Assembly (NCBI GenBank): GCA_049969855.1 | Contig: JBMFOB010000006.1 | Location: 1-63,607 of the forward strand | Origin: Candidatus Bathyarchaeia archaeon | GTDB taxonomy: Archaea > Thermoproteota > Bathyarchaeia > Bathyarchaeales > Bathycorpusculaceae | Direction of reading: 5' to 3' | DNA length: 63,607 nt | Shown here: positions 8,967 through 15,819 of the stretch, in pieces | How positions within the stretch are numbered: the stretch's first letter is position 1 | Layout: each line of letters opens with the position of its first letter | Made by a program: the position numbers and the translations under genes | The notes under the pieces: model-generated | What the model was told of the DNA's origin: nothing | The model's input: the letters and a program-made list of their open reading frames with translations, nothing else | The model's database searches: none

Positions 8967-9380
8967 ATGATGACATACAACTATGAAGAGCTTTTGAAAA
9001 GGGCGCGTTCTCAGATTCCTGAAGTTTACTCTAAAAAGGAAAGGCTGGAAGTTCCTAGGCTTAATGTTTCAGTTATTGGCATGCGCACAATAGTTCACAA
9101 TTTTAAGGAAATAGCGGACGCTTTGGGGCGTGACCCACAGCATTTGTTGAAGTTTTTGACGCGGGAGTTGGCTACGGCTGCTACTTTGCAGGAGCAGAGG
9201 GCTATTTTTAAGGGGAAGTTTTCCCAAGAAACTTTGAATAGGCTTTTACAGCGGTATATAGAAAGTTTCATTGTATGTCCCGTCTGCAAACGCCCAGACA
9301 CAAAAATTGTAAAGGAGAAACGCCTATACTTTCTAGTGTGCGCAGCCTGCGGGGCAAAATCTCCTGTGCAACAACTTTAA
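8967..9380 (+). CDS. eif2b: Translation initiation factor aIF-2 beta subunit
   Basis: YEELLKRA...NFKEIA...ELAT...CPVCKRPDT...CAACGA zinc ribbon. Confidence 0.95.
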   Translation: MMTYNYEELLKRARSQIPEVYSKKERLEVPRLNVSVIGMRTIVHNFKEIADALGRDPQHLLKFLTRELATAATLQEQRAIFKGKFSQETLNRLLQRYIESFIVCPVCKRPDTKIVKEKRLYFLVCAACGAKSPVQQL

Positions 9381-9763: not shown

Positions 9764-10069
9764 TTGGGTAAAAAGAAGGTCCTAAGCGAAGAAGAATTAA
9801 GCGAGATGGTTTATCCTACGGCGAATGATGTTTTGGGTGTAGCCGTTAAACTTTTGGGTTTTGACCGTGTCTTGGTTAAGTGTCAGGATGGACATGAACG
9901 CTTATGTCGCATTAGGGGTAAGATGAAGCGTAGGGTTTGGATAAGGGAAGGCGATGTGGTTCTGGTTTCTCCATGGGATTTCCAAACTGACAAGCGGGGC
10001 GATTTGATTTGGCGTTACACAAAGTCACAGGCGGAACTGCTCCGCAGAAAAGGCTACTTAACAATCTAA
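9764..10069 (+). CDS. eif1a: Translation initiation factor aIF-1A
   Basis: CRIRGKMKRRVWIREGDVVLVSPWDFQ. Confidence 0.95.
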   Translation: MGKKKVLSEEELSEMVYPTANDVLGVAVKLLGFDRVLVKCQDGHERLCRIRGKMKRRVWIREGDVVLVSPWDFQTDKRGDLIWRYTKSQAELLRRKGYLTI

Positions 10070-10093
10070 TTTTAACATAATGGTGAACATATA

Positions 10094-10903
10094 GTGTCCC
10101 ATAGGAGAGTTATCGAGAGAAAACTTCACAGAAAAGAGAAAGAGTATGAAACTGAACAGTTGATGAAGGAGAAGAGAAGCGAAGAATACGAAGTTCTGGA
10201 AGAAGTTTTTGACCGATCAACCCTCATGGTCATATACGATTTTCTAAACAAGGGAACAATAGACGAAATCCACGGCGTAGTCAAAGCCGGAAAAGAGTCA
10301 AGGGTTTACTGGGGAAAGGATAGGGAAGGCAACGAGTTAGCCATAAAAATTTACTTAACAATCTCCGCAGAATTCCGCAAGGGCATGCTCAAATACATCG
10401 AAGGCGACCCAAGATTCAAAGGCGTTAGGCGTGACACTCGCTCAATAATTTTTGCATGGGCTCAAAAAGAATTCAAAAACCTTGAACAAGCAACATTTGC
10501 TGGAGTCCGCGTTCCAAAACCCATAGCCGTGAAAAATAACGTGTTAATAATGGAGTTTATAGGAGAAAATGGCGTATGCGCCCCATCCATGAAGGAGCAA
10601 CCGCCAAAAAATCCAGAAAAAACCTACAACACGCTCTTAACATATTTGAAAAGGCTTTATAACAGGGCTGAACTTGTTCATGGGGACTTAAGCGAATACA
10701 ACATTATGATTTGGAAAAACAAGCCAGTAATATTTGACATGTCGCAGGCTGTTCCGCTTTCGCATCCCATGGCAGACTTTCTATTGCACAGAGATTTAAC
10801 AAACATAAACAAGTTTTTCAGCAGATTAGGCGTTAATGTTTTTTCCACAGAAGAATGTTATATGAGGATTACGGAAATTGGCAAAACCAAGCACATTCCT
10901 TAA
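10094..10903 (+). CDS. rio1: Rio1-type serine/threonine kinase
   Basis: GKESRVY, WAQKEFKNL, LVHGDLSEYNI, DMSQAV. Confidence 0.93.
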   Translation: MSHRRVIERKLHRKEKEYETEQLMKEKRSEEYEVLEEVFDRSTLMVIYDFLNKGTIDEIHGVVKAGKESRVYWGKDREGNELAIKIYLTISAEFRKGMLKYIEGDPRFKGVRRDTRSIIFAWAQKEFKNLEQATFAGVRVPKPIAVKNNVLIMEFIGENGVCAPSMKEQPPKNPEKTYNTLLTYLKRLYNRAELVHGDLSEYNIMIWKNKPVIFDMSQAVPLSHPMADFLLHRDLTNINKFFSRLGVNVFSTEECYMRITEIGKTKHIP

Positions 10904-11456
10904 AATACCAAAAGAACGAGTAGGCGCCCTAATAGGTCCAGAAGGAAAAACCAAGAAAAGCATAGAAGAGAAGCTTTCAGTTGAACTTCAAATAGAAAGC
11001 GAAACAGGCGCCGTTACAATTATGCTGGCTGAAAACGCCAATGATCCATCCTTGCTCTTTAAGGCTAAGGATGTTGTAACAGCCATTGGAAGGGGTTTCT
11101 CTCCAGAACATGCCTTTCGCTTAATTCGTGATGAAGAAGTCATATTAGATGTTATAGATTTGCGAACAATTTTTGGAAGGTCAGAATCAGACATAAAACG
11201 CATTAAAGGGCGAATAATTGGGATGAATGGAAAAACCCGCAAAATAATAGAAGAGCTAACAGACGCAAACATATGCGTTTACGGACACACAGTAAGCATA
11301 ATTGGAAACATAGACCAAGCCCAAGCAGCAAGAGAAGCCATCCAAATGCTCATAAACGGAAGCCAACACAGCACAGTATACCGTTTCCTCCACAGAAAAC
11401 GCAGAGAACTTAAAAAGAAAATGCTTGAGCTATGGGAAAAATCACCAGATTCTTAG
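10878..11456 (+). CDS. KH-domain rRNA processing protein (Dim2/Pno1 family)
   Basis: IPKERVGALIGPEG, AIGRGFSPE, GRIIGMNGKTR, VYGHTV; follows rio1. Confidence 0.9.
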   Translation: MAKPSTFLKIPKERVGALIGPEGKTKKSIEEKLSVELQIESETGAVTIMLAENANDPSLLFKAKDVVTAIGRGFSPEHAFRLIRDEEVILDVIDLRTIFGRSESDIKRIKGRIIGMNGKTRKIIEELTDANICVYGHTVSIIGNIDQAQAAREAIQMLINGSQHSTVYRFLHRKRRELKKKMLELWEKSPDS

Positions 11457-11566
11457 AGAAAACACTAGTTTCTGAAATAGGCAAAGCCCCATACTTTTTC
11501 TCATTTTTGAGTCAAATTTATATAGAAAATAGTTCTAGAACAAAAGTTCACCCATCTGGGGGGGCG

Positions 11567-11737
11567 ATGGCAACAAGAAACCTTTTCTTGCTGAAAGCGG
11601 TCCTCACCATACAACTTTCAAAACTAGGCTTGGACGTTGCAATCTGCCATAAATGTGGCAAAATATTCATGAAAACTGACGGAACAACAATCTGCAAAGA
11701 ATGTCAACACCAATTACTCTCATCTTTTTCTGCTTGA
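11567..11737 (+). CDS. Small zinc-ribbon protein
   Basis: GGGGGG before ATG at 11567; CHKCG...ICKEC. Confidence 0.5.
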   Translation: MATRNLFLLKAVLTIQLSKLGLDVAICHKCGKIFMKTDGTTICKECQHQLLSSFSA

Positions 11738-11791
11738 AACCTCAATGCACTACAAACAAACGGGCTAGAGGGGAGCTAAAGCTCAACAGTT

Positions 11792-11862
11792 TGGCGAGCT
11801 CTTCGCACTCAAGATCCCAATCATTTTTGTTCAGCGGGGCCAGAGTCGTCATCGCTCTGCCA
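11792..11862 (-). ncRNA. Putative box C/D-like sRNA gene used as the integration target
   Basis: Minus strand reads TGGC(A)GAGC stem, G-ATGACGA (C-like), CTCTGGCCCCG, CTGA (D'), ATGATT (C'), GGGATCTTGAGT guide, ...AAGA, GCTCGCCA stem. The terminal D box is degenerate. Confidence 0.45.
11839..11856 (+). repeat. attL core GCCAGAGTCGTCATCGCT
   Basis: Identical to 15792-15809. Confidence 0.9.
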
Positions 11863-12760
11863 TGGTAATGATGATGATTTGCAATTTATTAATGTTGCGA
11901 CGACTCCGCCCCCGCTGAACCATTCTGTAGATTGGAGTGCGTTTAAGGAATGGTTATGCAAAGATAAGAGTGGAGATTATGCAAGAGATTTATTGAATTA
12001 TGCTAAACGCTTTCACCATTGCCTTTTCAATGGCAACTTAAGTGAAGTTGCATTGTTAAGTGAAGGCAAACGTAGAATGGTTTTAGCGAGTCTTTCAGCT
12101 TTAGCGAAGTTTTTAGGCATTTATGACCAATGGAAAAACTCCATTCAAAGATATGGGATTAAATGGGTTGAAGTTGAAACAAAAGATAAGCGAATCATTC
12201 AAAGACTAACCAAGGCAATAGATGTAAACGATGTTTACCAATGGATTAAAAGCGTTAAAGAAGCAAGACCAGAATTAAGCATCTTCATAGGTTTCATGGC
12301 GATTACGGGTTTGCGTCTTGTGGAAGCTGTCGAATCTTACAACCTCATTATTAAATTGGCAAAGGAAGGAAGGTTAAGCGAGTATTACGATAGCGAAAAA
12401 GAAGTTTTGGAACACTACAAATTTAGAGAAACATTCCTACGGAAAGGAAAGAAAGCGTTAATCAGTTTTGTTCCTAAAAGCATGGTTCAAAGGATAGCTG
12501 AAGACTCTTCGCTTAAGACAGCTTCATACATAGATAAGAGCATGAGGCATTATGGTTTACGTTCACGTTTTAGCGATTTAAGAGAGTTTCATGGAAGCAT
12601 CATGACTAAACACCTTAACCAGAACGAAATAGACTTTCTGCATGGTAGGATTGGAACATCAACTTTCATGGCGAACTATTATAATCCATTGTGGATTGGC
12701 GATTTAAAACAAAGAGTCTGGAAAGGGATAAGTGAAATCCTTGCAGAGATACGATGCTAA
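11840..12760 (+). CDS. Tyrosine recombinase, C-terminal fragment (intC) of an SSV-type integrase
   Basis: TGLRLVEA, SDLREF, FLHGR, NYY catalytic-type motifs. The frame is open upstream of the TTG at 11879 through attL (PESSSLCHGNDDDLQF). Confidence 0.85.
   Translation, partial: PESSSLCHGNDDDLQFINVATTPPPLNHSVDWSAFKEWLCKDKSGDYARDLLNYAKRFHHCLFNGNLSEVALLSEGKRRMVLASLSALAKFLGIYDQWKNSIQRYGIKWVEVETKDKRIIQRLTKAIDVNDVYQWIKSVKEARPELSIFIGFMAITGLRLVEAVESYNLIIKLAKEGRLSEYYDSEKEVLEHYKFRETFLRKGKKALISFVPKSMVQRIAEDSSLKTASYIDKSMRHYGLRSRFSDLREFHGSIMTKHLNQNEIDFLHGRIGTSTFMANYYNPLWIGDLKQRVWKGISEILAEIRC
11862..11923 (+). ncRNA. Putative element-encoded box C/D sRNA or K-turn inside the integrase ORF
   Basis: ATGGT-A-ATGATGA (box C, 11868-11874)...CTGA (box D, 11915-11918)-ACCAT; perfect 5-bp terminal stem with a 3-nt bulge. 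Confidence 0.5.
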
Positions 12761-12980
12761 ACCGTTTAATCTTCTCTCCCTTTTCATAAACAAATCCGTA
12801 ATCATTCAAAATGGCGATATAGAAGTTGCAGGAATCCTTTTAGCGTTTGAGAAAAGCAGCAGGGTCCCATTCCATAAACCTTTCACTTTAGTGCTGTTGA
12901 CGAGAGATGGAAAAGCAATTATGCGAGATTGGGACATAGTCAAATTTAGACCAGTTAAGGTGGTGAGGGGTTATGCGTAA
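12732..12980 (+). CDS. Small element protein, possibly Sm/LSm-like fold
   Basis: LSLFINKSVIIQNGDIEVAGILLAFE resembles the Sm1 motif; overlaps its neighbours. Confidence 0.45.
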   Translation: MKSLQRYDAKPFNLLSLFINKSVIIQNGDIEVAGILLAFEKSSRVPFHKPFTLVLLTRDGKAIMRDWDIVKFRPVKVVRGYA

Positions 12981-13197
12981 ACATGATAATCCAGTTCCCA
13001 AATGGATAACTCTGGTCGCTACGCTGCTTTTAGGTTGCATTCTGGTTCCAATAATTGTTGACCAGGTGCAAAGCGTTAACACGACAAGCTGGAGTTTCAC
13101 GGGTGTAAGTGGAGCAAGAACGCTTTTCGGTCTTATCCCATTCATTTTCATAGTCGGCATAATCATTTACTTTATGGTTGAACTGTTGAGGGTTTAG
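12973..13197 (+). CDS. Spindle-shaped virus major capsid protein (SSV1 VP1/VP3-like)
   Basis: 74 aa; two hydrophobic helices LLLGCILVPIIVDQV and ARTLFGLIPFIFIVGIII separated by a loop with an NTT sequon and TG. Pattern recalls fusellovirus VP1 (IGxxLLPVIVxQV...TG..ATLL.LVPL). Confidence 0.7.
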   Translation: MRKHDNPVPKWITLVATLLLGCILVPIIVDQVQSVNTTSWSFTGVSGARTLFGLIPFIFIVGIIIYFMVELLRV

Positions 13198-13202
13198 ACG
13201 GA

Positions 13203-13601
13203 ATGGCAAATATTAATCAGTTTTTTCTTGACGGTTTTCTAAAACTTTTTCTGGCAATGTTCACGTTTAACCTGGGAATGCTCTTAATGGTATTGGCAAT
13301 TAGTAATTCACTGTTTTATTATGCTTCAGCTTCATTGTGGATAATCAGCATCCTTTTCATTCTGAAACAAGTGCAACATCTACGATGGATAAAAGATAAT
13401 TTGGAATTCAAAGAAGATGATGAACCGCAAATAAGAATAGATGCAAGCGATGAAGATTATGTTAAGGTTCTCAAGTTATATCTTAACGGTTCCTATAAAA
13501 CCATAATGAAAACGTATCAGTTTAAACATCCTGGTCAAGCTCAACGGTTAATAAAGAAAAGCATAAGGCAACTTTTGATAGAAAAGGGTAGGGGTAACTG
13601 A
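13203..13601 (+). CDS. Element membrane protein (2 TM segments plus C-terminal soluble domain)
   Basis: Hydrophobic N-terminal half and charged C-terminal half; starts 5 nt after the capsid gene. Confidence 0.6.
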   Translation: MANINQFFLDGFLKLFLAMFTFNLGMLLMVLAISNSLFYYASASLWIISILFILKQVQHLRWIKDNLEFKEDDEPQIRIDASDEDYVKVLKLYLNGSYKTIMKTYQFKHPGQAQRLIKKSIRQLLIEKGRGN

Positions 13602-13612
13602 TTAAAAAATGC

Positions 13613-13765
13613 TTATTGCTTCTCTTTTTCTCTTTTGCTTAACCATTCTGGAATTATCACAGCTCGAATTAATTCTTGAACGGTTATGCCTCTCTCCTTC
13701 GCTAATTGCTGAAGTTTCTTGTAAACTTCTTCTTCGAGTGTTTGCATGAATTTAGGCATACTCAT
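13613..13765 (-). CDS. Ribbon-helix-helix DNA-binding protein (50 aa, not in the ORF track)
   Basis: MSMPKFMQTLEEEVYKKLQQLAKERGITVQELIRAVIIPEWLSKREKEKQ; GGTGA-like RBS upstream. Confidence 0.75.
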   Translation of the reverse strand: MSMPKFMQTLEEEVYKKLQQLAKERGITVQELIRAVIIPEWLSKREKEKQ

Positions 13766-13844
13766 ATGTTTCTCACCATCCTATATTTATTTCATTCTGT
13801 AGATAGCTATAGAAAGATTTAAAAAGATTTCCATTTATACCTAA

Positions 13845-14273
13845 ATGCTGCACGTATCTTCTACGTGCGAGAGTGAGAAAGTGGAAAGAAAGCTGATTGT
13901 AACTGGTTTGGCGGCACTTTTAGCGCTTGCCCTAATCGTCTATGCCTTTGAACAACAAGCTGTCACTGTTTATCGCCCCACGGTTGTAGCGGTGAACTTT
14001 CAAAACTTGCCAGTGTCACTTTACGCTGTTAATTTCAATTACAGCGATGCGCAAATGCGTTACACGACCGTAACTTTAACGTTGAACAACACTGCAGCGC
14101 CGATGAACGCTTCAATAAGTGTAATGCTTTACGCTAATGAAAGTGAAGCGTGTAGTGGATTTTGGAGTGGCGTTTTAAACGGTTTCCAGCAGCTGCAGGT
14201 AACGCTAAACTGGATTGGCAATTACACGGTGAACGACATAACCAGCGGATACGTAACATTGAAGCAACCTTAA
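13845..14273 (+). CDS. Secreted or membrane-anchored beta-rich glycoprotein, putative virion or adsorption protein
   Basis: N-terminal hydrophobic helix; many NxS/T sequons (NYS, NNT, NAS, NES, NYT). The true start may be GTG 13881. Confidence 0.6.
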   Translation: MLHVSSTCESEKVERKLIVTGLAALLALALIVYAFEQQAVTVYRPTVVAVNFQNLPVSLYAVNFNYSDAQMRYTTVTLTLNNTAAPMNASISVMLYANESEACSGFWSGVLNGFQQLQVTLNWIGNYTVNDITSGYVTLKQP

Positions 14274-14296
14274 ATTTGAAGAACTAAGCTTTCAAC

Positions 14297-14313
14297 CTTC
14301 CCCCCTTTTTTCT
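14297..14313 (+). terminator. Pyrimidine/oligo-T archaeal terminator
   Basis: CTTCCCCCCTTTTTTCT just after the stop at 14273. Confidence 0.4.
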
Positions 14314-14543
14314 GAAAAGGCAATCTATGGGAAGTTAGACGCTCCAGATTTTTTATCTGGCACTTTTTCCATGCTTTTCAGTTGAAGCGTAACATCTTTA
14401 TGGAAAATGTAATCCTCACTCTATTCGTGTGATAAGTGATATGTTGTGTTGACACGCACAAGCGTCAACCTAAACGGATGATGTCCTTTCCAATAATTTT
14501 TAGTTGATAGCGGCAAAATCAAAGCGGAAGCAATACCCACGCG

Positions 14544-14957
14544 CTAATCATGCCACTTGCCACATGGATAAAACATGAACAGATAATCCAATAAACTGTA
14601 TTTGATAACTTGATGGTTTTCCACGTCAATTATCTCGATTGCCTCTTTAACCCTCGGATTATTAAGAAGTTTAAACCATCCAGCTTTAACAATGAAATCC
14701 AATTCCCAAACATATTTTGGATGGCAATAAAATGGACGTAAAGGATGTTTAAAGACTCGAATACGCTTCAGACTTTTATACATTAACCTGCGAAACGTAT
14801 CTTTAGCATAAATATGTTTAAAAATTGGATAAAGGGCATCCATAATTTGTTTTGGAGTTGCATAATGAAAAGCTTCAAAGAACAATCTTAAATAATCTTC
14901 AAGGCGTAGGCGAGTAGTAGCATCCTCATTTTTGGTTTCATGGAAATTCATGGTCAC
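14544..14957 (-). CDS. Hypothetical element protein (possible wHTH or replication-related)
   Basis: 137-aa ORF inside the element; no recognisable catalytic motif. Confidence 0.5.
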   Translation of the reverse strand: MTMNFHETKNEDATTRLRLEDYLRLFFEAFHYATPKQIMDALYPIFKHIYAKDTFRRLMYKSLKRIRVFKHPLRPFYCHPKYVWELDFIVKAGWFKLLNNPRVKEAIEIIDVENHQVIKYSLLDYLFMFYPCGKWHD

Positions 14958-15015
14958 ATCTATGACTTTTAAAACTGAATGACAATTTAAGACTTGTTGA
15001 CAAAGGTGTGTTAAA

Positions 15016-15177
15016 ATGCAAAAAGTAAGAATAAGCGTAAGAATTGATGGAGAAGATTTCGAGAAGATTCAAGCTGCAATAAAGAAGGCATATCCAACTT
15101 TAAGAAGCGTTTCTGATGTTGTCCGTGCAGCTTTGAAGGAATTTCTTTCTAAACATGAAGGGGTGTGTGTGTATTAA
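15016..15177 (+). CDS. CopG/RHH DNA-binding protein (53 aa, not in the ORF track)
   Basis: MQKVRISVRIDGEDFEKIQAAIKKAYPTLRSVSDVVRAALKEFL; GGTG RBS. Confidence 0.75.
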   Translation: MQKVRISVRIDGEDFEKIQAAIKKAYPTLRSVSDVVRAALKEFLSKHEGVCVY

Positions 15178-15352
15178 AATGAGTGTGTCTGTCTTGTCTT
15201 CCTTCTTCTCTTCTCTCTTCTCTACTCATAATACTCATATACTCATACATACACACATACACACTCACACCTTTTCATTAAAGGAAAATGGGGTAAGCAG
15301 CGGCGGCGAAAACTCTGCAGCTTCTCCGATAATACACACACATACACACACC
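15164..15352. repeat. CA/TG-rich repeat region, candidate replication origin
   Basis: 13-bp inverted repeat (15164-15176 and 15330-15342), TACTCATA x3 (15223, 15232, 15240), ATACACAC repeats. Confidence 0.55.
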
Positions 15353-15359
15353 TTTTTAG

Positions 15360-15608
15360 GTGATGTTCATGGTTAAACGTGACGGAGCAGAAATAAGAAA
15401 AGAAAGAATCCAAGAAATTGTTAGAAAAGTTGTTAGTTTGCTGCATAACGAAGAGGAAATACTGGTAGATTCCACCGTTGCCATTCTTCAATACGAAACA
15501 GGATTAAGACCAGACAAAATAATGGAATACCTCGAAATTGGAGACCAACTTAAACGGTTTGAACTTGACAAAGATAAAAACAAAATTAAGAAAATCAAAG
15601 AGGCATAA
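15360..15608 (+). CDS. Small winged-helix-like element protein
   Basis: RKERIQEI...YETGLRPDKIMEYLE helical pattern. Confidence 0.6.
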   Translation: MMFMVKRDGAEIRKERIQEIVRKVVSLLHNEEEILVDSTVAILQYETGLRPDKIMEYLEIGDQLKRFELDKDKNKIKKIKEA

Positions 15609-15626
15609 ACGTTAAATAGCTATTTA

Positions 15627-15642
15627 TATGCATATATGCATA
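15627..15642. promoter_or_regulatory. Perfect 16-bp palindrome TATGCATATATGCATA upstream of intN; candidate operator
   Basis: Lies between AT-rich TATA-like sequence and the GGTGA RBS of intN. Confidence 0.5.
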
Positions 15643-15651
15643 GGTGAAAAC

Positions 15652-15819
15652 GTGAAAGCGAGAACAACACTCCTAATAGATGCCGACGTTTTGAAAACCG
15701 CCAAAGAATTAGGTTTCAACATTTCAATGGTTTGTGAAAACTGCTTAAAAATCTATATAGAGGCAATAAAAAACGCTAATAAGAAAATAGTGCCAGAGTC
15801 GTCATCGCTTCGCCGTTAA
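15652..15819 (+). CDS. Integrase N-terminal fragment (intN) with CcdA/VapB-like RHH domain
   Basis: RTTLLIDADVLKTAKELGFNISMVCENCL; ends ...VPESSSLRR across attR, in the same att reading frame as intC. Confidence 0.75.
   Translation: MKARTTLLIDADVLKTAKELGFNISMVCENCLKIYIEAIKNANKKIVPESSSLRR
15792..15809 (+). repeat. attR core GCCAGAGTCGTCATCGCT
   Basis: Identical to 11839-11856. Confidence 0.9.

Follow-up and report, generated by a model that had tools for sequence, protein, structure and literature searches.

What is a segment with box C and box D letters, and with an inverted copy of its own host target, doing within the first codons of an integrase gene? The locus that raises this question lies in a 63,607-nt stretch of DNA from a Candidatus Bathyarchaeia archaeon (the window; contig JBMFOB010000006.1, forward strand, whose positions serve as coordinates throughout), which belongs to a metagenome-assembled genome (MAG) of 1.28 Mb that is 93% complete. 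The window contains an integrated element of 3.9 kb, and an earlier note on this DNA had proposed, as one of several alternatives, that the start of its integrase gene encodes a canonical viral C/D small RNA (sRNA) that replaces a disrupted host guide. That reading is not borne out by the present analysis. The integration target is itself a conserved box C/D-like sRNA gene, which is rebuilt in full at the left attachment site (attL) of the element, and the copied segment is constrained at the nucleotide level among related elements. We tentatively read the 62 nt in question (11862–11923) as the P′ arm of the attachment site of the element (attP), situated inside a split SSV-type integrase gene and holding both a replacement promoter for the sRNA and a target-mimic repeat that acts as DNA. 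The anatomy of the locus is unusual and testable.

Results

The element carries a split integrase gene

A repeat search made independently of the earlier note located the att core at both ends of the element (Table 1), and a 17-nt stretch inside this core is common to attL and the right attachment site (attR) in 5/5 elements for which both ends are available. Three same-genus genomes align with the reconstructed host site (attB) through the junction without interruption. In the same sample, an 81-nt contig (run X1, depth 15) covers 11788–11856 and runs on for 12 letters that are identical to the sequence right of attR, which is fewer than the 31 letters needed to count as bridging; the element contigs have a depth of about 7. 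This contig is a hint of an empty site and suggests that element-free cells were present in the sample.

The C-terminal part of the integrase, Int(C), which is the largest ORF of the element, has a single sequence-level match, to the PHROG family phrog_5127 “integrase” (E 9.6e-11), and no match in Pfam, NCBIfam or the PDB by either single-sequence or profile searches. An AlphaFold model of Int(C) built on 29 homologues (predicted local distance difference test score 86.2) was compared with known structures by Foldseek, and matched archaeal XerA (4a8e, E 4.5e-4), the catalytic domain of SSV1 integrase (3uxu/3vcf, probability 0.99–1.00, template modeling score TMt 0.57–0.62) and lambda Int (5j0n/1z1b). 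Residues R146, K191/K192, R235, R257 and Y267, to which we presumptively assign the catalytic roles, are invariant across the 29 homologues.

The N-terminal part, Int(N), at attR and Int(C) at attL read the core in the same frame (…PESSS…) in 5/5 elements with both ends, and thus the circular form would carry one integrase gene that has attP inside it and is split on integration. From the PHROG 5127 match, the predicted fold and this context, we assign the arrangement to the SSV-type (“suicidal”) tyrosine integrases, for which two publications describe the same layout of attP within the integrase gene and a split on integration (PMC7253208; PMC8371274). A pattern search for contigs in the circular or attP form found none among viral contigs (0 matches), metagenome contigs (five matches, all attL) or genome contigs (one match, attL).

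Homologues of this integrase are present in 142 of the 401 genomes of the order. At 27 of the 29 best homologue loci the Int(C) part adjoins a fragment of a tRNA gene, which parallels known suicidal integrases; the fragments were recognized by eye from T-arm or D-arm strings, the exceptions being one locus that has no tRNA fragment (L041) and one that is cut by a contig end (L045).

Palindromes were also noted near the integrase parts. The integrase promoter/start region upstream of Int(N) holds a perfect palindrome, TATGCATATATGCATA (at about 15615–15650), whose sequence does not differ among five elements and which resembles the operator of a dimeric regulator. Four tRNA-targeting loci (L029, L031, L033 and L051) have a 7–9-bp hairpin with a 3-nt loop directly after the att core on the element side; by eye, the arms of this hairpin differ between loci yet stay complementary, and palindromes of the P′ arm may be more widespread in this integrase clade.

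The integration target is a conserved box C/D-like sRNA gene

When the host DNA left of the core was used together with the core as a 124-nt query, matches of 80–98% identity were obtained in about 38 of 60 related genomes (E ≤ 1e-5), and a pattern search recovered the guide box of the sRNA in 227 of the 401 genomes of the Bathyarchaeia order. The orthologues (L004–L022 and L058–L087) are about 65–72 nt long; in the window the gene lies on the minus strand. Their parts follow one another as an AT-rich promoter block, a 7-bp terminal helix, box C, a guide, box D′, box C′, a second guide, GA and the 3′ strand of the helix. Box C has the sequence ATGACGA, which deviates from the consensus at one position and is invariant in 33/33 orthologues, box D′ is CTGA or another nnGA, and box C′ is ATGATTG-like; both guides are invariant, and GA directly precedes the 3′ stem strand in all orthologues but L020. 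The host RNA therefore presents boxes C, D′, C′ and D in order with guides of 11–13 nt, and we call it C/D-like because its boxes deviate from the consensus.

The terminal helix is supported by covariation. Its seven pairs are formed in 97.5% of cells, a percentage that is inflated because four of the 33 sequences, those with fewer than 6/7 pairs, were dropped before the count, leaving 29. Four pairs have changed on both sides (14 cells), the covariation score was reached by 0/500 shuffles, and controls in which the strands were slid were 40–57% paired. Searches of 12 orthologous sRNA loci gave no Rfam match at E ≤ 1, and the host sRNA scored 12.7 bits for snoPyro_CD, compared with a threshold of 45; no Rfam family reached its threshold.

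Targets of the guides were sought in the 16S and 23S rRNAs of a family member (G012) and in 38 tRNAs of the source MAG (G000), whose own rRNA genes are unassembled. Two candidates are marginal, namely 23S position about 1438 (score 11, with 95% of the null at 10.5) and the anticodon loop of tRNA-Leu(CAA) (score 10, with a null median of 9.5). The gene for this tRNA contains an intron (G000 contig C19, 10374–10481, minus strand), and ARAGORN detected it when introns were allowed but not by default; its anticodon loop and the second guide of the host sRNA are complementary over 10 contiguous bases. In four genomes (G000, G012, G252 and G279; Table 1), a gene for a conserved 160-aa membrane protein has a perfect 12-nt complement of the D′ guide immediately ahead of its start codon. 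The mRNA of this gene was rejected as a conserved target, since a complement with up to two mismatches is present in just 8/30 orthologous loci, and the match may reflect either lineage-specific regulation or chance in a purine-rich ribosome-binding region.

Two further observations concern the sRNA locus itself. Many orthologues (L014, L019, L062–L067, L074, L075, L077–L079, L085, L090 in G267 and L142 in G349) have about 30–60 nt inserted downstream of the second guide and ahead of the D box/3′ stem, after which the conserved 3′ end resumes (as seen in L014, L019 and G267); this insertion could be an intron or an expansion hairpin. In addition, G267 (L090; contig C9, about 485.7 kb and 498.3 kb) and G349 (L142; contig C81) have inverted partial duplicates comprising the sRNA promoter and the first 27–35 nt, at distances of 12.5 and 2.6 kb, respectively, from the complete gene, which other elements, or inversions mediated by an integrase, could have left behind at this locus.

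The sRNA gene is rebuilt at attL and separated from its native promoter

The att core constitutes the first 23 nt of the sRNA gene, and the remaining 46 nt at its 3′ side come from the host; in the gene as rebuilt at attL, the outermost bases of the core are the element's version. A covariance model made from 29 orthologues (R1) matches the rebuilt gene over its full length (positions 1–67) with 77.1 bits (E 7e-20), and this is the sole R1 match in the whole genome. The outcome is the same in all seven elements now known with this target (see below), in each of which a full-length sRNA of 70–80 bits is rebuilt at attL. The idea of a disrupted host guide that the element would have to replace therefore falls away: with the sRNA rebuilt, and with this as its only copy in the genome, nothing needs replacing.

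What has been displaced is the native promoter of the sRNA, which now lies at attR, 3.9 kb from the rebuilt gene. Because the only copy of the sRNA is the one rebuilt at attL, its expression depends on element DNA upstream of it. An element that takes the 5′ end of a single-copy RNA gene whose conservation extends across the order must therefore supply a minus-strand promoter inside the integrase frame.

A candidate for such a promoter is an AT-rich 9-mer located about 23–33 nt upstream of the first base of the rebuilt sRNA, a position that resembles that of the AT run in native promoters (about −21 to −31). The block is flanked by a short symmetric GCAA/TTGC repeat, which stands where the transcription factor B recognition element (BRE) is expected from its consensus. 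Between the AT block and the sRNA start lies a hypervariable stretch, and variable sequence is what is expected between a TATA box and a start site.

The start of Int(C) holds an inverted copy of the sRNA guide segment

As the earlier note had described, positions 11899–11920 are the reverse complement of 11829–11850 at 20/22 positions. The spacer between the two arms is 48 nt. Ten nucleotides of the match (11829–11838) are host sequence outside the att core, given the span of the independently found core. The right arm, which encodes the residues TTPPPLN among the first codons of Int(C), is exactly the box-C tail, guide and D′ box of the host RNA, and thus the segment is indeed a copy of the host target locus inside the integrase frame, this target being the box C/D-like sRNA. 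The boxes, too, lie where they had been placed (ATGGT at 11862–11866, ATGATGA at 11868–11874, CTGA at 11915–11918 and ACCAT at 11919–11923). A second ATGATGA overlaps the first at 11871–11877, and one spacer base separates the ATGGT stem from box C, which is the spacing of the canonical K-turn register.

The inverted repeat lies well outside the range of chance, with a score of 16 compared with a maximum of 9 and a median of 7 in 20 letter shuffles, and it is absent from 26 tRNA-targeting homologue loci, where scores are at the level of shuffles. The bare pattern ATGATGA-N30–45-CTGA, which is weaker evidence, occurs three times in the window (two overlapping occurrences at the motif and one at 8967) against 0.39 expected. 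Predicted RNA folding of 11825–11925 gives −43.4 kcal/mol for the plus strand and −45.9 kcal/mol for the minus strand (z −6.4 and −7.4, with 0/200 shuffles as good), and the 62-nt motif alone folds no better than its shuffles (z −0.65, 49/200 as good).

Such stable predicted folds on both strands raise the alternative that the arms act at the RNA level, as a 22-bp stem formed in any transcript running through attL. A plus-strand hairpin would keep read-through from the host gene out of Int(C) or mask the start of Int(C), and on the minus strand the element arm would be antisense to the guide region of the sRNA and could sequester the sRNA or mimic its target. It accords with a hairpin that one of the two mismatches becomes a G-U pair on the minus strand in all seven elements, and that the repeat is complete in the integrated state only. 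However, the expected start of the sRNA lies between the arms, and no minus-strand promoter or transcript that spans both is known. Furthermore, two constant mismatches persist in the middle of the stem despite the supposed selection for pairing, no oligo-T follows the hairpin, and in 4/7 elements the repeat does not extend further at its outer end than it does in the window, regardless of the host flank. We consider a hairpin or decoy function unlikely.

Sister elements reveal constraint on the nucleic acid

The pattern of a core followed by the copy was found in one further case among species-representative genomes (G188, L093) and in five metagenome contigs (L094–L098), and neither this pattern nor any relative was found in viral contigs. 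All seven cases are attL junctions that adjoin the sRNA gene. A search for duplicated cores in the 401 genomes of the order gave no further element with the sRNA target; four candidates (G267, G313, G349 and G374) were rejected as paralogues or rearranged partial copies.

All seven elements keep (A/T)TGATGA, the 9-mer TTTATTAA(T/C), the copy and CTGA. The first of these strings is ATGATGA in six elements and TTGATGA in one, the 9-mer is identical in six and has one synonymous change in L094, and the copy has the same first substitution throughout and either C or T at its second substituted position. From the core to the 9-mer the codons are hypervariable, with indels. TGATGA is the sole conserved string in this linker, where the residue that precedes it varies among N, Y and I, and it is present in none of the 26 tRNA-targeting homologue loci. 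Of the 8-mers shared by the P and P′ arms, only TTTCAATGG recurs in all five elements, no more than chance would give in regions of this size.

Five full-length genes, two of them 98% alike, were compared at synonymous sites. Pair differences in codons 15–38 (11885–11956) amount to 13/177 (0.07) compared with 603/2388 (0.25) overall, and none of the 243 other 24-codon blocks is that low, the minimum being 0.15. In the wider integrase family the linker is the translation of each lineage's att region and is not conserved as protein, and therefore the constraint is on the nucleic acid.

The expectation that homologous integrases keep the boxes at synonymous positions was supported in the seven sRNA-targeting elements, which retain both boxes and copy with little synonymous change. 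The companion expectation, that the guide covaries with attB, was not, because the host guide is invariant; only L094 has a 2-nt change toward its host flank. This element shares nine letters with the host flank after CTGA, but just two are specific to L094 and the rest are common to other elements, and in L095 and L097 the copy does not follow the host flank. Covariation was accordingly dropped as evidence.

The conserved letters also bear on two other explanations. The copy might be a relic that has no function of its own, the scar of a switch of this lineage from a tRNA target to the sRNA target (for example, from an earlier attP in the opposite orientation or from an integrase-mediated inversion), in which case its conserved look would stem from a recent spread of the module. 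Divergence among the elements is indeed much greater in the rest of Int(C) than in its first 38 codons, the core and Int(N); the N and C parts of suicidal integrases are described as differing in origin and as forming hybrids at att (PMC7253208); and partial inverted duplicates of the 5′ part of the sRNA gene exist elsewhere, in G267 and G349. However, the hypervariable, indel-bearing linker between core and copy indicates that time has passed while the copy stayed fixed at synonymous sites, and the linker is, as stated above, unconserved as protein in the wider family. We regard a relic as improbable. Two of the alternatives listed in the earlier note, an attB-linked DNA element and captured host sequence, fit the origin of the copy, but a pure relic is at odds with the synonymous-site constraint. 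The second explanation is an overlapping micro-open reading frame (micro-ORF), in which one or more ATGs of “box C” in the +1 frame open 15–18 codons that end at the TGA of “box D”. This frame is open from ATGATG to CTGA in 6/7 elements, but an earlier TGA interrupts it in L094 and the same conserved letters yield it as a by-product. We give a micro-ORF hardly any credence.

The element motif lacks the structure of a canonical C/D sRNA

The same segment could instead work as a viral C/D-like guide RNA, with the integrase mRNA providing box C, a degenerate box C′ (GCGACGA), an 11-nt guide and box D (CTGA). Host L7Ae, Nop5 and fibrillarin would assemble on these boxes and either release a small RNA whose specificity is changed at two positions or control integrase translation on the mRNA. 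Consensus boxes C and D are present in 7/7 elements, the C-to-D gap (37 or 40 nt) and the 11-nt spacing from guide to box D equal those of the host sRNA, and box C is kept in the hypervariable linker although the preceding residue changes, while being absent from the tRNA-targeting loci. Moreover, the best plus-strand Rfam match is the archaeal C/D family snoR9 (17 bits, E 0.064), the two differences between the viral guide and the host guide are constant, and the C-to-T variant of L094 would still pair with G. C/D sRNAs can mature out of longer transcripts, as reportedly found by Tripp et al. in 2017.

Structural and target evidence points the other way. The terminal helix in the canonical register has 5, 2, 0, 0, 1, 0 and 0 pairs in the seven elements, so that the “canonical K-turn geometry” claimed for the motif is peculiar to the window copy. 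RNAalifold with the seven sequences gives −2.66 kcal/mol, with no terminal stem and 0 compensatory pairs. The position of box D′ is occupied by TATT/ATTA and has no GA, and the C′-like GCGACGA, which is the copied box-C tail, is present in 6/7 elements. The 17 bits for snoR9 compare with a gathering score of 90, SNORD34 and SNORD18 reach 13–14 bits, and all of these lie below the family thresholds; the covariance model of the host sRNA gives the copy just 11.7–19.3 bits. In the rRNAs and tRNAs searched above, the viral guide reaches a complementarity of 8.5 at best, the same as the median for 100 shuffled guides, and no target was found for either suggested complement of the guide, and no target was found inside the elements. 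TGATGA also represents plain Asp-Asp/Glu codons, and a viral C/D RNA leaves the invariant AT block unexplained.

With no general terminal helix, no D′ box, no target found among the RNAs searched and a family score far below the threshold, the motif fails as a canonical C/D sRNA. We judge a functional C/D-type RNA of the element unlikely, and the same holds for a guide RNA assembled from the boxes named above. A slightly longer shot still is the specific version in which the integrase mRNA encodes a pirated sRNA guide, altered at two fixed positions, that redirects the C/D machinery or throttles integrase translation.

A proposed attP arm that would act as DNA

We tentatively favor a view in which the DNA just inside the element has DNA-level jobs that override the choice of codons in the integrase gene. 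The element recombined with the first 17–23 nt or so of the minus-strand sRNA gene, moving the native promoter to attR and supplying a replacement 5′ end that completes the gene at attL. The AT-rich block with its GCAA/TTGC flanks would be the TATA box and BRE of the rebuilt sRNA. The copy lies directly upstream of this block, and together with the gene's own segment it forms a 22-bp inverted repeat on either side of the putative new promoter and the crossover region. It may be a protein-binding site, that is, a second copy of a sequence that the integrase or a regulator recognizes in attB, and could serve synapsis, directionality or promoter control; candidates for the bound protein are the integrase and a regulator such as the ribbon-helix-helix (RHH)-type Int(N) fragment. 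We infer promoter activity, protein binding and the identity of the binding protein from the arrangement of the sequence. The copy is taken as a second binding site because the repeat is absent from the 26 tRNA-targeting relatives, whose tRNA targets bring a stem-loop symmetry of their own, and because, according to a review, an archaeal att site requires inverted repeats that surround the overlap as well as nucleotides beyond the shared core (PMC8371274).

Several observations weigh against this proposal. A position weight matrix (PWM) derived from 29 native promoters of the sRNA gives the antisense strand of the elements scores of −0.2 to 2.0 (−9.2 in L096), compared with a native median of 9.5 and with 6.7% of all window positions scoring at least 0; because the PWM does not recognize the AT block, it is position and AT content that speak for a promoter. 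The copy is 45 or 48 bp from its partner, which is too far for a classical core-type dyad, this spacing is not constant in helical phase, and the repeat keeps the same two mismatches throughout, a feature that a simple dyad leaves unexplained. For SSV-type integrases, no use of arm sites is known (PMC8371274). The whole att-proximal region is unusually alike among the elements, Int(N) and its promoter being nearly identical, and part of the low divergence could come from the recent exchange of a young, shared att-proximal module, a process described for suicidal integrases (PMC7253208). Finally, the conserved TGATGA in the variable linker is unexplained by a DNA-level arm and looks like box C.

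Other features of the element and its surroundings

The core-to-core length is 3247–3953 nt in the element family (the window element and L095–L098) and 3247–3941 nt in the sister elements. Besides the split integrase and a His1-type capsid protein gene, the members carry five or six ORFs that match no family, and in L095 the Int(C) frame stops after 165 codons. The element encodes a small two-helix protein of the type of the major capsid proteins of His1 and fuselloviruses, which exceeds the cut-off for Pfam His1_capsid (Table 1) and also matches the virion structural protein family phrog_11172 (4.3e-5). The remaining six ORFs of the element have no Pfam or PHROG family, the rest of the virion and replication gene set of spindle viruses was not found, and the 3.2–3.9 kb of the element family do not correspond to their known genome size. 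Neither the integrase nor the capsid protein has a tblastn match in 50,697 phage/virus records. These elements may be minimal spindle-type proviruses, satellites or remnants; we know of no archaeal virus genome as small as 3.2–3.9 kb.

At the gathering threshold, tRNA-His is the sole Rfam match in the whole window. Left of the site (9764–11456) lies a trio of genes for aIF-1A, a Rio-type kinase and a KH-domain protein that is usual in archaea, as judged from the translations. It is followed by a small zinc-ribbon ORF (11432–11737) whose Pfam zinc-finger matches are weak and below the cut-off.

Table 1. Coordinates of the features discussed in the text (window positions unless another contig is named).
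Feature	Position	Strand	Remarks
Integrated element, 3.9 kb	11862–15791	+	Bounded by direct repeats
attL core	11839–11861		Direct repeat, 23 nt, 21/23 identical to 15792–15814, spacing 3953
attR core, followed by native promoter region of the sRNA gene	15792–15814		Direct repeat
Rebuilt host box C/D-like sRNA gene at attL	11793–11861	−	Covariance model R1, 77.1 bits
Left arm of inverted repeat	11829–11850	+	10 nt host flank and 12 nt core; antisense of sRNA box-C tail, D′ guide and D′ box
Clamp, 5′ half, ATGGT (partner ACCAT, 11919–11923)	11862–11866	+	5-bp clamp in the window element alone
Box C-like heptamer ATGATGA, two overlapping copies	11868–11877	+	Codons N-D-D
Invariant AT-rich 9-mer, candidate TATA box	11885–11893	−	About 23–33 nt upstream of first base of rebuilt sRNA
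Right arm of inverted repeat	11899–11920	+	Element-borne sense copy of sRNA box-C tail, D′ guide (2 changes) and D′ box
Box D-like CTGA	11915–11918	+	Copied D′ box of host sRNA; 7/7 elements
Int(C), C-terminal part of split SSV-type tyrosine integrase (assigned)	11862–12760	+	Frame open from core; called ORF 11879–12760
Small two-helix capsid-like protein gene	12973–13197	+	Pfam His1_capsid 6.7e-10, 39.2 bits (cut-off 27)
Int(N), N-terminal part, RHH/CcdA-like, 63 codons	15628–15819	+	Pfam CcdA 2.7e-7
Complement of host D′ guide	G000 contig C7, 7233–7247		Also at L113, L124, L129, L131, L132, L135 and L141

Discussion

In its general plan the element resembles SSV1, SSV2, pTN3 and pT26-2, in which attP lies in the integrase ORF, int(N) and int(C) are split, direct repeats flank the element, and an RNA-gene target antiparallel to int is regenerated on integration (PMC8371274 and PMC7253208). 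The predicted tyrosine-recombinase fold, closest to XerA and SSV1 Int, is a further likeness, although no sequence-level match to Pfam Phage_integrase or to PDB chains was obtained here. What differs from the SSV-type systems is the kind of target, the use of its 5′ end, the short core and the target-mimic repeat. The target is a box C/D-like sRNA gene rather than a tRNA gene. Because the core comprises the 5′ end of this gene, a new promoter is required; 45–48 bp from the core there is a 22-nt inverted copy of the target; and the core measures 17–23 nt, in contrast to the 40–50 nt given in the review (PMC8371274). The review makes no mention of sRNA, snoRNA or noncoding RNA, and neither it nor a limited literature search yielded a report of integration into a C/D sRNA gene, although supplementary files may list such sites.

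A likeness to lambda-type attP, which has arm sites and architectural bends (PMC8371274), is that conserved recombinase-proximal DNA extends past the core exclusively on the phage side, where an AT-rich, bendable stretch separates core and accessory site. Unlike in lambda, the accessory sequence here is an inverted copy of the core/attB itself. We know of no separate arm-binding domain or accessory factor for SSV-type enzymes.

With archaeal box C/D sRNAs (the Rfam clan that includes snoPyro_CD and snoR9, and the sR families), the host RNA shares boxes C, D′ and C′, a GA-type D box and a covarying terminal helix. The element motif shares with them its boxes, its overall length and an 11-nt guide next to box D, but it has no terminal helix in 5/7 elements and lies inside a protein-coding frame. 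A virus-encoded box C/D RNA is reportedly known from a eukaryotic virus, the v-snoRNA1 of Epstein-Barr virus, which is said to be an independent, canonical snoRNA; the element motif, unlike that RNA, fails the C/D structural tests. We know of no virus-borne C/D RNA from archaeal viruses. Were the unlikely guide function true, it would give the host C/D machinery a new 2′-O-methylation target and would be the first virus-borne C/D guide in archaea.

Two by-products of the analysis are valuable in themselves, namely a C/D-like sRNA that is conserved across an archaeal order and has no Rfam family, and a family of integrated elements of 3.2–3.9 kb that carry a spindle-virus capsid gene.

Suicidal integrases are said to specialize in tRNA genes. 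Here, a lineage of them has moved to a C/D-like sRNA gene and takes its 5′ end, which means that the element must supply the first nucleotides of the RNA and a promoter within the integrase frame. Three codes, for a protein, for an att site and for control of an RNA gene, would thus overlap in about 100 nt, where selection at the nucleotide level is measurable. The locus offers a test bed for how an SSV-type enzyme recognizes a target that has no stem-loop symmetry, and for whether a virus can borrow a host guide RNA module.

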